64,000 nt of DNA, taken from positions 2,848,001-2,912,000 of the forward strand of contig CM000151.3 in assembly GCA_000004695.1 (NCBI GenBank), in the 5' to 3' direction. This DNA is from Dictyostelium discoideum. Lineage: Eukaryota. The position numbers and the translations under genes were made by a program. Of this stretch, positions 46,718-63,917 are shown one piece after another; position 1 is the first letter of the stretch; each line of letters begins with the position of its first letter. Below the pieces are notes generated by a model, which saw only the letters and a list, made by a program, of their open reading frames with translations, made no database searches and had not been told where the DNA came from.

Positions 46718-49700
46718 TTAATCAAAATAACCTAAATATCTCAAGAAAAGAGCCCTGTCTCCTACTTTTTTAATTAAATCTTTCCATTCATATTCAGTGA
46801 TTGAAAAAGCAGTTTCGAAATTTGAGATTGAATTTTCTTCAAATACTTTGGCAATTGCAGTTCTTTGAGTAGGAGAAAGTGGGATATTAATAAACCAAGA
46901 TAAAAAACTGTCATTTAATTCAGGATTATCAACAATCTCAACTCTTGTCAATTTGGCAGAGTTTGTTGGATCAATTTTAATTTTAATATTTTCAGGTTCA
47001 GTTTCTTGAGACTCATCCATTGTTTCATCAATTTCATTTTGTTGTTGTTGTTGTTGTTGTTGTTGTTGTTGTTGCTGTTGTTGTTGTTGTTTTTGTTGTT
47101 CATCTTCTGAAGTAGAAGTAGTAGTGGTGGTAGTAGTTGTAGTAGTTGAGGTAGTAATAGCATCTTCATTTGAGAAATCATTATTGTCAATATTCATTTG
47201 ATTTTCAACTAAAACTTCATCTTCTTTTTCTTGTTTTAGAGTTGATTGTTTGTAAATGAATAAAATTGAAGTTCTTTTTTCAACCTCTAAATTTTCACTT
47301 CTGTTAATGAATGATACTGGATCATTGGTTGAACATCTAATGCTTGCATTTTCATTGTCATCTGAGGAATTAATATGAATTGAACTATGATTTCCATTTG
47401 ACATTAGCACAGATTCTAATACATAGGTTAAATCATCACCACCACTACCATCATCATTTTGAATTTCAAATGAATTACCAATTTTAATGAATTTTGGGAA
47501 ATCGATAGGTTTGAAAGTTGGTTCACCATTTTTAATTCTATTTACAGAAACTAAAAGATGAGATGGTGAGCTAATTAAAACTGTTTTACGTTGAACTTGT
47601 TTATTACAATTTTTACATTGCTCAATTGAATTATTTTGAGAGTAGAGTGTGTTGGCAATATTCTCTTCGATATTATTTGAATCAATGTTTACAGTAAAGT
47701 CCAAAATAAATTGTTGAAGATTTGGTTTTATTAATTTCTTACAAACATTACATATATGTTGACAACTACCAGTGAGAGGAGTGAATATGGATGATGATAT
47801 TTTTTTAATTGATTGTAAAAGTAAAGCTAAAATCTTTGAAGGTGATAAGAAGGATGAAGATGGAGTTGAATTTAATAATTCCATTAATTCATCATTTGCT
47901 TCAATGAATTCCTTAAATAAAGTATCGACTATGAATGGTTCTTTTAATTTTTTACTTGAAATCGATTTGAAATGTTGTAACTCTGTATATAAAGAGAAAG
48001 AGAATTTAACATCTTCAATATTTAATAAATCAATTAAATTGAATCTTATCCATTCTAATAAACTCGTAGCAAAGATTGGTATTGACGATGATGATGATGA
48101 TGTTTTGATAGTATGATCCTTTAATATTAACATAGTTTTAATTAATGATTCATCCTCTTCTTTATCATTTCCATCATTACTAATAACTTTAACATTTTTA
48201 GTTAGATATTCATTATTGTATGATACTAATTCTTTAAGTTTCAAATTTTGATCAGCTTTTTTAAACATTGGATTAATGGATCTATTATCTTGAGATTGTG
48301 AAGGGGTTGAAGCTCTTGGATTGAAAAATTTCTTTTTAGTAGTGCCATTTAAATCATCAATTGTTAATTCTTTGAAAATGATTAAACCACCACCACCACC
48401 ACTACCAAATCTACTATTTTTATCATTTGTAACTTCACCAATTTCATCCAATTGAATGTGTAAAACTGTTAGAGTTTCTTGAAGTGTACCCATAAATGTT
48501 GCATAATAACTTGAAGTCATACTTGGTAAAACAAAAGTAAAGATTGATAAATTGGTTGAAGGTTCTTTGATATCACGTAATTGGAATTTATTAATTAAAT
48601 GTAAAAGTGGTAAATCTGGTTGAATGGATCTTGCAATTCTCTTTGAATCTTCAGAAGATGCTTTTTGAATGATTTTACCTAAATAATCTTTCCAAAGAAT
48701 TGAACGTTCTCGAATATCAAATTCACAATCCTTTAAGATACTCTCTGAAATTGATTTAAATTGAATTAAATAGTCATTGTTTGGTTGAACTGGGTCAGGA
48801 ATAATTGAACTATAATAATATCTAAATCCAAGGTAACTATTTATAAATATATCACATAGTGATAATACTTGATTTACATTAATAACTGGTAATAAATCTT
48901 TAATAGCAAAATCTAATTTAAATGATTCAAAAACATCATCACTCATTAATTCAATATTATTATTATTATCATTATTATTATTATTATTATTATTATTATT
49001 ATTATTATTATTATTATTATTATTATTATTATTATTATTATTATTATTATTATTATTATTATTATTTTTAAAATTTGAAAATTGTAATTGATTTAAATTT
49101 AAAGTTTTAATAAAATCTAAATTTTCTTGTTTTGAAATTAAAAGTAAAATTTGAATTAAATATCTACCAAATGATTCTAATTGATCATTATTTAATTTTG
49201 ATTTACATCTTGAACGTAATTTAATCTTTATAGTTTCTTCTATTTCATTATTAAAACCTGTAAATGTTTCAATCTTTTCAATTAATTCATTTAGTTCTTT
49301 AATAAATTCTGGTTCAACAGTTGGTTTTTTAATTTTATCTAATAATTTTTCATTAACTTTAGTAACTACTTCAGTTAAACCATAATCTTCATCGTCATCG
49401 TCATCATCATTATCATTATCAACTTTTTGTTCTTGTGATTTTTTAATGGTTGGTTGTTTTTTGAATTTTAAATCTGTTTTAAATCTAATTAATTGATTTC
49501 TAATTACTTTACCATAGAGATATTGTAAGATGATTGAATTTTGAATTAATGACCAATCGATAGAACCTACAAATTTAGATTTATCAAGTACAAAGTATTT
49601 AGAGATCCAAGATGAATAATAATGATAGAAATCTTCAGGTTTAAAGTTTGCACCAATTAATAGATTATCACTACCAATTGTTGATGGAATATCACCAATA

Positions 49701-61700: not shown

Positions 61701-63917
61701 TTTTTTTTTAACTTTTCTCTTTCGAATTCAAAAGAACTCTCAATATTGGCCAAATCTGAAATTAATGGTTCATAGTAATAAGACAATGAGGTTGGAGCAA
61801 ATTCAAGGTATTGATGGTCTGGGTGCAATATTGAAAATGTAGCAAACAAATCCAAAACTCTATTTATCTTCTCCATTGCATATCTTTGACAAACATTTGC
61901 ATTTTTACCATTGAGTTCAAACAAACTTATCAAAAAATCTTTTTTACCTCTTTTGTATATTTGATTGTTAAAATCCTCTGGCTGAGCACCTAAAAATTCT
62001 AATGACCTAAATAAATTAATAAGAAGAAGGAGAAGAAGAAGAAGGAGAAGAAGAAGAAGAAAAAAAAAGAATTAGTAATATTACTAAAAATATAAACATT
62101 TATATATATATATCATATTGTTACTTTAAAAATTCACTATCAGAAAGATAACTTAAATCTAAGGATTCAACAACTTTTGAATACTCTTGAAAATCTCTTA
62201 AAACTTGATATAGCGTAGGGTATGTAGCAAACAATTTAGTAACGATTGCTTTAGCCTTTTCGTTTACATATAAATGCTTTAACTTTTGAGTTTGGAAAGC
62301 AACTAACAAACTCTTAAAAGGGTCTGAATATGTTCCTTCTTCATCATTGGTTATACTCTTTAAATCATTGAAAACCGGTCCTTTACCATTTACAGGTCTA
62401 CAACTTGATAAAAGTTCAAAGAAAAATTGGAATATTGTAATATCAGGGTTATCTTTTAAAAATCTAGTAACGTATTTAACAAAAAGAGCTTGATGATTAT
62501 CAGGAATATGAGAAAACATATCCATAAACTTTGTTTTTTGATATTTATCGGAAATAAAGTAATAAGAAAGCAATATTTTGATATATGCACTTGTTAAAAC
62601 ATAAGGATAACTAAGAGTGAAATAAAAAATTAAATCTATATTTGTTCTTTCATTTCCAGTGAGAGTATTGAAGAATGTGGTATAAGTTTCTTTTACTGCT
62701 ATAATGGAATATGGCATCAATGGAATACCCGATGAATTTAATGATTCTGATAACTCCAAAAGAATATCGCCTGTATCCTGTTCAAACTCTCTTTAAAAAA
62801 TATTTTTGTTAAATTAGTATATATATATATTTATTAAACTCTTTAATAACTAAAGTGAAAATAAACTCTTTATACTGTACCCATGGTGAACAATGTAATA
62901 CCACATAGATCTATGCGGATTTTCCTTATGTAATTGTTTATCCAAGAATTGAACTTTTGATTTCTTTTGTTGATTTTTTATCCAATCTTTGTCTATAGGA
63001 TCAAAGAAATGATCTGGAATAAAAAAACTAATTAATGATGAAAAAAAACCTTTTTGTTTCTCTTGCTCTATGTTCGCCCAAGCTGATTTTTCTTTGTTAT
63101 GTAAATAGCCCAAACTAATTTTTACTATGGCACGAAAATTATTCGGATCCTCTAATAAATATTTTTTATTATTGGTTGTTGTGGTTGTACTAGTTTTATT
63201 ATCATTATTATTGCTGTTATTATTGCTATTATTATTATTATTATTATTATTATTATTATTATTATTATTATTATTATTATTATTATTATTATTATTATTA
63301 TTATTATTATTATTATTATTATTATTATTATTATTATTATTATTATTATTATTATTATTATTATTATTATTATTATTATTATTATTATTATTTTTATTTT
63401 TATCTAATACTTCCCCAATCAAACGAGTTGTATTATTTGATGCGTTTACTACAGCTTGAGTTGTATTATGAGTATTTTTTTCAATATTGGGTTTACTATT
63501 TTGATCTGCATGTACTACAGGATTACTACTAGATATATTTACAATGGTGGAAATAAGGTTTTTGGTTTCGGGACTAATTGAATTATTGTTTTCATAGCTA
63601 TTATTTACATTTAGTTTATTAGTTTCTGTTTTTGGTACAACCTCTTCTTTTTGAGTTTGTTCTATATTTTTATTATCATTTTGTTTTTCATTATTATTTT
63701 TTGTTTCACTCTCAAGGTGTTTAGCTTCGAGACTAATTGAATTATTGTTTTCATTGCTATTATTTAAATTTTGTTTATTAGTTTCTGTTTTTGGTGCAAT
63801 TTCTTCTTTTTGAGTTTGCTCTATATTTTTATTATCATTTTGTTTTTCATTATTATTATTATTTGCTTCATTCTTTGATTTATTTAATTGAGAGACATCA
63901 CTCTCATTGCTATCCAT
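46718..63917 (-). CDS. Giant (about 5,636 aa) protein with three tandem dynein/midasin/RNF213-type AAA_5 P-loop ATPase modules; proposed 4 exons (A 63917..~62881; B ~62790..62125; C 62006..61424; D 61342..46718)
   Basis: Exon D is a 14.5-kb uninterrupted ORF. It has three Walker A loops: GEFGTGKT (about 58.9 kb), GDTGTGKS (about 57.78 kb) and GPPGCSKT (about 56.45 kb). Module 2 has Walker B IFVIFIDEFN and a sensor IRIIGAMNP, the DE(I/F)N ... (A/T)MNP signature of AAA_5/MoxR/dynein. Module 3 has VVFLDEAG and VGIVILSN. The upstream ORFs join in frame through canonical introns. Junction C/D is GAG ATT|GTAAGT ... cataatag|ATT AAA (81-bp intron). Junction B/C is TTA AA|GTAACA ... tttatttag|G TCA. 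Junction A/B is about 90 bp with three possible donor/acceptor pairs. The lengths 1037+666+583+14625 = 16911 nt make 5637 codons. Exon A starts at an ATG (63917) and carries a 2x 43-aa tandem repeat plus an (AAT)n poly-N tract. The far C-terminus has a Cys/His cluster CQHICNVC...CKNC. Confidence 0.7.
62984..63410. repeat. (AAT/ATT)n microsatellite inside exon A of the giant gene (encodes about 70 consecutive Asn)
   Basis: Over 200 bp of perfect ATT repeat on the plus strand. Confidence 0.9.

Follow-up and report, generated by a model that had tools for sequence, protein, structure and literature searches.

A giant protein of Dictyostelium discoideum with an RNF213-type AAA core, a USP-fold domain and no RING or RZ finger: a probable ubiquitin reader

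RNF213 is the major susceptibility gene for Moyamoya disease, and its product acts in cell-autonomous immunity, attaching ubiquitin to bacterial lipopolysaccharide. How the AAA ring of this giant protein controls its unusual ubiquitin ligase (E3) scaffold is not settled. Elsewhere in the ubiquitin system, USP39/Sad1 and PAN2 are known as catalytically inactive USP folds. Here, we analyzed a giant gene on the minus strand of a 64-kb stretch of Dictyostelium discoideum DNA (contig CM000151.3; this whole stretch is called the window below), with a G+C content of 13–32% across 2-kb windows. An original prediction, made from the sequence of the window without database searches, had described a giant four-exon gene here and had likened its product to RNF213. 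We consider it rather probable, although not firmly so, that the 5,636-residue product is an RNF213-superfamily giant with an RNF213-like ring and scaffold in which the ligase fingers are missing and a pseudo-USP domain is present, and that it is a reader of ubiquitin rather than a writer.

RNF213 itself provides the reference for this comparison. Its AAA1 module has no Walker motifs, and the ATP bound by AAA2 serves as a structural glue, the residues for hydrolysis being absent from that module (PMC7311170). The hydrolyzing sites are AAA3 and AAA4 (PMC7311170), and the closest structural homolog of the core is dynein (Ahel et al. 2020; PMC7311170). A CBM20 domain in the N-arm was newly identified by a 2024 cryo-EM study (PMC11549300). 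According to a review, RNF213 is conserved among protochordates as well as vertebrates (PMC9099590). A full-text literature search found no paper linking RNF213/mysterin to an amoebozoan homolog, although domain databases may already group them.

The AAA core of the giant protein spans approximately residues 1440–3010 (54599..59311; all features of the gene given below are on the minus strand). A phmmer search of 177,635 PDB sequences with this segment returned nine sequences at E <= 0.001, all of them RNF213, the best with an E value of 6.4e-48 over residues 2085–2871. When the product of the fourth and largest exon was used to search 5.8 billion proteins, "AAA+ ATPase" proteins of Pelomyxa schiedti came out on top (E values of 1e-156 and 4e-134), and the best named relative was vertebrate RNF213, with E values of 8e-44 and weaker; no protein identical to the query came up. 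By BLASTP, residues 2038–3001 align with residues 2426–3357 of RNF213 at an E value of 1e-52, with ~24% identity over ~960 residues. The AAA1 and AAA2 modules were placed by multiple alignment with RNF213, and a weak profile match (E values of 2e-4 to 5e-3) supports this placement. Judged by colinearity with RNF213, the core would comprise six modules, AAA1 to AAA6, within which the three P-loops sit.

These P-loops, together with their Walker B and sensor motifs, had been noticed in the original prediction and are present as described there: GEFGTGKT (residues 1572–1579; 58892..58915), GDTGTGKS (residues 1947–1954; 57767..57790), and GPPGCSKT (residues 2390–2397; 56438..56461), at spacings of 375 and 443 residues. 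In a multiple alignment, they map to AAA2, AAA3, and AAA4 of RNF213. The number of P-loops is not the number of modules, and the triple AAA core that had been proposed would give way to the six-module one. GEFGTGKT aligns with ERAGVGKS in AAA2 of RNF213, and the Walker B position of AAA2 is degenerate in both proteins (LLHINLS here and IFHVDVT in RNF213). No Walker A match was found in the AAA1 region by a P-loop scan. In AAA3, the Walker B motif is FIDEFN (residues 2120–2125; 57254..57271), the sensor motif IIGAMNP is present, and, compared with RNF213, an insertion of ~100 residues lies between Walker A and Walker B. The Walker B motif of AAA4, FLDEAG (residues 2466–2471; 56216..56233), is followed by the sensor-1 asparagine (ILSN) and then by a conserved TNR motif, which we read as the arginine finger.

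The motif set of these two modules is well kept. Walker A, Walker B (DE), the sensor-1 asparagine, and the arginine of "AKTNR" are found in AAA3/AAA4 both here and in RNF213, and the same set is common to Pelomyxa and nine full-length dictyostelid homologs; a shorter paralog from Polysphondylium violaceum (P0019) has degenerate motifs. GPPGCSKT is identical in all 13 of the 13 aligned amoebozoan sequences. From the motifs, we infer the same split of labor as in RNF213, with AAA2 holding ATP and AAA3 and AAA4 hydrolyzing it.

Since the AAA core matches RNF213 chains alone and an E3-like scaffold follows it, the RNF213-like label of the original prediction was right for most of the protein. Weak profile matches put the start of the scaffold near residue 3350, with a hinge region between it and the AAA core. 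We modeled residues 3690–4840 (49109..52561) using AlphaFold with nine homologs, and the model is all-helical, with a predicted local distance difference test score (pLDDT) of 69.3 and a predicted TM-score (pTM) of 0.56. A Foldseek search of 350,542 PDB chains with this model gave exactly two matches at E <= 0.001, and both are RNF213: the E3 module of human RNF213 (9jwg_A; E value of 2.7e-8, probability of 1.00, 1,336 aligned columns) and mouse RNF213 with UBE2L3 (7oik_A; E value of 6.8e-5). The next match had an E value of 1.9e-2. We regard the match as specific because nothing of comparable structure was reported to exist in the PDB for the E3 subdomains of RNF213, which are E3-back, E3-shell, and E3-core (Ahel et al. 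2020; PMC7311170). In addition, four of the six matches reported by hhalign between the scaffold and RNF213 are colinear, the offset staying between +210 and +290 residues, which is unlikely by chance (~1e-5 by our rough estimate). Ancestry is shared with RNF213 over the AAA core and probably over the E3 scaffold as well.

RNF213 is an E2-dependent (UBE2L3-type) transthiolation E3, with a C3HC4 RING inserted in its E3 module and an RZ finger (Cx3H...C...CxxC...H) whose cysteine accepts ubiquitin. Both of these ligase features, the RING and the RZ finger, are absent from the giant protein. Motif scans found neither of them here, in Pelomyxa, or in any dictyostelid homolog, and the same scans applied to the vertebrate matches found a C3HC4 RING in five of five and an RZ finger in four of five. 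A Pfam search of the protein also gave no RING match. By interpolation of the offsets, the RING of RNF213 would map to approximately residues 3755–3800, where there is no Cys/His cluster, and the RZ finger would map to approximately residues 4220–4300 on the interpolated hhalign offsets. The sole cysteine cluster in the protein consists of C5289, C5293, C5296, C5338, and C5341. A C-terminal Cys/His cluster had been used earlier as an argument for RNF213 architecture. This cluster is a USP zinc ribbon, which RNF213 does not have, and not a RING or RZ finger. The roughly 3,000 residues in which no features could be placed before include the E3-module-like scaffold.

The USP-fold domain covers residues 5170–5464 (47237..48121). 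The giant protein's own C-terminus has no Pfam match at E <= 10, and so none to UCH, and no match among the PDB sequences; as these single-sequence searches were empty, the relationship to USPs emerged only after homologs had been gathered. A profile of ten family segments searched against the PDB sequences ranked eight USP sequences (USP18, USP36, and USP28) first, with E values of 7e-4 to 3e-3. Five of the ten aligned family segments have a match to Pfam UCH (PF00443), the best with an E value of 1.6e-11. The AlphaFold2 model of residues 5170–5464 has a pLDDT of 84.7 and a pTM of 0.87. A Foldseek search with it returned 294 PDB matches at E <= 0.001, and all of the best 50 of these 294 are USP-family deubiquitinases. 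The top matches are USP15, USP7, USP12, USP36, Ubp8, and USP35, with E values of ~1e-13, a probability of 1.00, and TM-scores of ~0.6.

The aligned C-termini also show the motif order of USPs: a Cys-box-like helix, "HCLLNWLRF," then a "QQDAxEFL"-like helix, "SPGEFLVKLLDNLS," followed by CxxC, ~40 residues, CxxC, "PxYLFIxxxR," "YxLHSV...," and a final "LLIY." The zinc ribbon CxxC...CxxC of the USP fingers (47606..47752) comprises C5293, C5296, C5338, and C5341, which are invariant or nearly invariant columns in the family and align with the CxxC pairs of USP18 and USP36. The catalytic positions are less well kept. The nucleophile position is occupied by Ser5189 here; five of the nine homologs have Cys there, and four have R, N, V, or S. 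Against the family profile, HMMER aligns the "GH" of the USP18, USP36, and USP28 His box as inserted residues. His5414 stands directly before the strand that in USPs comes after the catalytic His, and it may be the catalytic-His position. At the His-box position, the three Cys-retaining homologs that could be read programmatically (P0013, P0014, and P0017) carry I, S, or L; by eye, the other two carry G and R, and the remaining homologs are also without His. No aligned family member has both the Cys and the His, and therefore we read the domain, from these alignments, as probably a pseudo-deubiquitinase. The natural Ser5189 mimics the Cys-to-Ser mutants that serve as ubiquitin traps, such as USP35 C450S in complex with ubiquitin (PDB 5txk).

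The giant protein is not alone among amoebae. An exhaustive HMMER search with residues 4271–5470 as the query identified eleven giant relatives of 3,538–5,794 residues, which are colinear with it from approximately residues 650–900 to the C-terminal region. The triple P-loop arrangement occurs in ten of the eleven, and the scan of P0013 shows the AAA3 and AAA4 loops alone. Ten relatives were identified by exact look-up: two from Polysphondylium violaceum, two from Synstelium polycarpum, three from Acytostelium subglobosum, two from Heterostelium album, and a JGI/IMG metagenome record (P0011). The dictyostelid family therefore has two or three paralogs in each of four species. Their names are limited to "hypothetical protein," "Uncharacterized protein," or "AAA+ ATPase domain-containing protein"; examples are KAF2070684.1 of P. 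violaceum, PPL_03700 and PPL_06205 of H. album, and XP_012755457.1 of A. subglobosum. No function has been published for any of these relatives or for those from Pelomyxa. An additional search with a Pelomyxa relative (P0001) added merely giant proteins without names and more vertebrate RNF213. As a side observation, word-indexed searches missed all of the dictyostelid homologs, although identity reaches 48% over 1,680 residues, probably because low-complexity words rich in Asn, Lys, and Ile saturate the word-indexed candidate list.

The two relatives from the archamoeba Pelomyxa schiedti (P0001 and P0002) share the triple P-loop core, the scaffold region, and the lack of RING and RZ fingers with the giant protein, and they have coiled-coil, Pro/Gln-rich tails and no USP domain. 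The dictyostelid relatives have the USP-like domain and a C-terminal tail of ~75 residues in common with it. From this distribution, the USP-fold domain and the helical tail appear to be dictyostelid additions. In one Synstelium polycarpum paralog (P0015, at ~4560–4827), a module with the classical AAA P-loop GPPGTGKS replaces the USP zinc ribbon and palm, which could reflect either a swap of domains inside the family or a fusion in the gene model. Overall, the giant protein appears to be a member of an amoebozoan branch of the RNF213 superfamily that is without a functional name.

As a ubiquitin reader, the giant protein would most likely work as RNF213 does, as a monomer that is switched by ATP. 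The helical scaffold would change its position as nucleotide turns over at AAA3/AAA4, in the way that has been proposed for RNF213, and ubiquitin or a ubiquitin-like modifier attached to a target would be bound by the USP-like domain. Since there is no zinc-finger ligase center, the protein would read ubiquitin and not write it. Through the ~75-residue tail, the protein may associate with itself or with a partner. A role in cell-autonomous defense or organelle surveillance in phagocytes is our guess by analogy, given that RNF213 acts against intracellular pathogens and that each dictyostelid genome has two or three divergent paralogs.

Several points weigh against this reading. The scaffold match comes from a model of medium confidence built from 10 sequences, and its TM-scores are low (0.22–0.28). 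Profile searches with residues 2990–4910 reach Pelomyxa (E values of 1e-55 to 1e-69) and do not reach RNF213, and the hhalign matches between the scaffold and RNF213 have E values of 0.05–0.4, so that they were used for colinearity support alone. In the USP-fold domain, the catalytic residues were placed by the alignment register and helix 18–32 of the model, not by superposition. Residual or unusual USP activity may also be conceived for the domain, given the possible H5414 here and the Cys in five of the nine homologous segments. At the other end of the protein, what is available for exons 1 and 2 is open frames and splice signals. Finally, the scaffold is poor in cysteine and has two that are invariant, C4292 and C4567, and this would fit a ligase that forms a thioester.

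The last point leads to the main rival, which we consider unlikely. It holds that the protein is still a ubiquitin ligase that works by transthiolation through C4292 (or C4567) with no zinc finger, and that the USP-like domain holds the donor or acceptor ubiquitin. Cys4292 (50753..50755) is invariant in the dictyostelid family, where it sits in the motif "DCGM.YR," and Cys4567 (49928..49930) is the second invariant cysteine of the scaffold, in the motif "MEGGC..R" (IEIEICPNALR here). Both are conserved in 10 sequences, in a protein with only 1% Cys, and C4292 lies within the interpolated position of the RZ finger. Furthermore, RNF213 lacking its RING keeps full auto-ubiquitylation activity (PMC7311170), and the context of the RZ nucleophile, "ECGM/ECGQ," resembles "DCGM." However, the RZ finger's zinc ligands (Cx3H...CxxC) are missing, the giant protein itself reads DCNAKYE and not DCGM, and the second family cysteine of the paralogs is missing here. 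We also considered that the "DCGM" motif is a remnant of an RZ finger ("ECGM"/"CVDCGA"); the hhalign match covers nine columns at an E value of 0.3, which is not significant, and the idea was kept only as a speculative part of this rival.

According to a second rival, the protein is an ATP-driven deubiquitinase, in which the USP domain is active and the AAA ring delivers or unfolds ubiquitylated substrates. The domain has a true USP fold and its zinc ribbon is intact, the UCH match is strong in one homologous segment (the E value of 1.6e-11 given above), and H5414 and the Cys retained in five of nine segments would suit an active enzyme. Against this, Ser5189 stands at the nucleophile position, and Cys-to-Ser mutants of USPs serve as inactive ubiquitin traps. 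The homologs that do retain Cys have other residues at the His position, the "GH" of USP18, USP36, and USP28 is an insertion against the family profile, and no conserved oxyanion-hole Asn was seen upstream of the Cys box in the alignment. We therefore give this rival a small probability, and favor a USP-like domain that binds ubiquitin.

The open reading frame (ORF) listing has an ORF of 4,836 residues at 46718..61228, counted from its first start codon, and upstream of it on the same minus strand are three further ORFs of 191, 212, and 359 residues. We estimate that roughly 8–9% of random codons at ~25% G+C would be stops, and therefore open frames of 190–360 codons are not due to chance. We enumerated all GT/AG combinations around the three gaps between these ORFs. 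Exons 63917–62881, 62790–62125, 62006–61424, and 61342–46718 join in frame to a 5,636-residue product with a single terminal stop, so the four-exon model with GT..AG mini-introns first proposed for this gene holds. Frame and splice enumeration place exon 1 at 62881..63917, with the ATG at 63917, and it encodes residues 1–345 plus 2 nt. Exon 2 (62125..62790) is open for 212 codons, exon 3 (61424..62006) ends at residue 762, and exon 4 (46718..61342) encodes residues 763–5636 and includes the stop codon at 46718–46720. Intron 1 (62791..62880) is 90 nt long with GTACAG..AG ends and 14.4% G+C, intron 2 (62007..62124) is 118 nt with GTAACA..AG, and intron 3 (61343..61423) is 81 nt with GTAAGT..AG. 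The three introns have a G+C content of 14–20%, versus 22–29% in the exons of the giant gene.

This model would be wrong if exon 4 were an independent gene that starts from an internal ATG (e.g., at 61225) and the upstream frames belonged to another transcript. No homologue among the aligned amoebozoan relatives covers exon 1, exon 2 is without homology support from them, and both exons are partly low-complexity. Several neighboring in-frame GT/AG alternatives also exist, which for intron 1 differ by a few residues, and the borders of intron 1, which has the weakest donor (GTACAG), are the least certain of the three. However, the gaps are merely 81–118 nt long, AT-rich, and bounded by GT..AG, and the frame runs on continuously through the joined exons. 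The alignment with a Heterostelium homolog (P0016), which starts at residue 647/657, crosses the exon 3/4 junction, and every full-length homolog has 600–1,000 residues upstream of the point that matches residue 780. We consider a separate exon 4 gene very improbable.

The least tenable rival, to which we give almost no credence, is that the core is a generic AAA_5-clade ATPase, a relative of dynein, midasin, or MoxR with a superficial likeness to RNF213: the Pfam matches of the AAA region are indeed weak (AAA_7 at 33 bits with a cut-off of 25.8, AAA at 24 with 21.2, AAA_5 at 21.7 with 22, and a weak AAA_22), but the nine PDB matches at E <= 0.001 include no dynein, midasin, or MoxR chain, the homology runs over ~960 colinear residues and into the RNF213-specific E3 fold, and Pfam finds no vWA/MIDAS and no dynein domains. 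The motifs had been called diagnostic of AAA_5 in the original prediction. The clade assignment stands through homology with RNF213, and it does not stand through Pfam, where AAA_5 is just under the cut-off. Dynein and midasin had been dismissed there too, and correctly: the sole Pfam match of dynein type is a 57-residue AAA_7 P-loop, and the protein has three P-loops, no Pfam vWA domain, and no midasin match in the PDB search, whereas midasin is marked by six P-loop AAA modules, a D/E-rich linker, and a C-terminal MIDAS (vWA) domain.

The remaining parts of the protein are less well conserved or smaller. The N-terminal arm (residue 1 to approximately residue 1440) is low-complexity and poorly conserved. 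Within exon 1, a 159-nt tandem duplication gives two copies of a 53-residue unit with 92% identity (63555–63921), and an (AAT)n tract after these repeats (63196–63403) encodes ~69 consecutive Asn. Other in-frame homopolymer tracts encode poly-Asn (48955–49070) and poly-Gln (47039–47100). Pfam found no CBM20 match in residues 240–3875, which is weak evidence, as the CBM20 of RNF213 was itself recognized only recently (PMC11549300). Between the scaffold and the USP-fold domain lies a helical domain (residues 4905–5060; 48449..48916) that is kept across the family. It may correspond to part of the C-terminal domain (CTD) of RNF213; a profile search gave no RNF213 match and a weak Pelomyxa match with an E value of 0.015. 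The C-terminal domain of ~75 residues (46721..46951) follows a poly-Thr/poly-Gln linker and is conserved in the family, and several paralogs carry a second stretch resembling it right after the first. Neither this tail nor eight paralog tails have a Pfam match, and our guess that it is a SAM domain was withdrawn for this reason.

We also surveyed the other genes in the window with Pfam. An ORF of 632 residues at 733–2628 (minus strand) is a full-length Hsp70 (Pfam HSP70, E value of 2e-260). The 708-residue ORF at 15141–17264 (minus strand) carries, besides a Cbl N-terminal EF-hand-like domain, a C3HC4 RING at its C-terminus, which places a gene for a Cbl-type ubiquitin ligase ~30 kb from the giant gene. 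At 18815–20770 (minus strand), a 652-residue ORF combines a PA14 domain with Dicty_CTDC repeats, a repeat family named for Dictyostelium; these repeats, the base composition, and the taxonomy of the homologs all point to a dictyostelid origin of the window. Two adjoining plus-strand ORFs of 413 and 386 residues (35211–36449 and 36698–37855) each have a SET domain, and from their sequences the pair at 35211–37855 looks like a tandem gene duplication. The 420-residue ORF at 27792–29051 (minus strand) consists of Armadillo repeats with an atypical Arm_3 at the end; it resembles importin-alpha, and a larger gene probably has it as one of its exons. At E <= 1e-5, no Pfam match was found for the ORFs at 31177–33402 (minus strand, 742 residues), 23176–24411 (minus strand, 412 residues), 3916–4935 (plus strand, 340 residues), and 7900–8844 (plus strand, 315 residues).

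The giant protein shows that the motif pattern of AAA2, AAA3, and AAA4 and an E3-type scaffold exist in Amoebozoa without RING and RZ fingers, and that an RNF213-type chassis can be paired with a different module of the ubiquitin system, a USP fold. It thereby sets the conserved mechanical chassis apart from the fingers that carry out catalysis, and Dictyostelium is a haploid, genetically tractable phagocyte in which one can ask what the chassis does alone. The dictyostelid homologs that are named merely as hypothetical or AAA+ ATPase could be re-annotated. We also put forward, as a speculation that is quite unlikely to be right, that this is an ancient RNF213 machine without zinc fingers that still acts on ubiquitin, either as a scaffold-cysteine E3 or as an ATP-switched pseudo-USP reader. 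If so, cell-autonomous defense of the RNF213 type would be older than animals, and infection models in Dictyostelium would allow genetic tests of its core mechanism. In the case of a scaffold-cysteine E3, the cysteine would occupy the site at which the RZ finger later arose, or was retained, in animals.

Among known systems, dynein heavy chain and midasin/Rea1 resemble the giant protein in having a single-chain ring of non-equivalent AAA modules of the same clade. They differ from it in that neither was matched at E <= 0.001 in the PDB search, that the P-loop scan shows no Walker A match in the AAA1 region here, and that no MIDAS/vWA or dynein-specific Pfam domain is found here. USP deubiquitinases such as USP7, USP12, USP15, USP18, and USP36 share the thumb-palm-fingers fold and the order of motifs with its C-terminal part; unlike them, the giant protein has Ser at the nucleophile position, a shortened His-box loop, and a fusion to an RNF213-type machine. 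The closest system is RNF213/mysterin (PDB 6TAX, 7OIK, 8S24, and 9JWG). Both are giant single polypeptides of ~5,000 residues or more, with a dynein-like AAA core in which AAA2 has a binding pattern and AAA3/AAA4 are motif-complete, and with a helical E3-module-like scaffold after the ring. Unlike RNF213, the giant protein has no RING, RZ, or detectable CBM20, and it adds the AAA3 insertion of ~100 residues, the USP-fold domain, a 75-residue tail, and many poly-Asn, poly-Gln, and poly-Thr inserts. With the RING and RZ fingers missing and a USP fold added, we do not file it as an RNF213 proper; it is a new architectural variant in the RNF213 superfamily.

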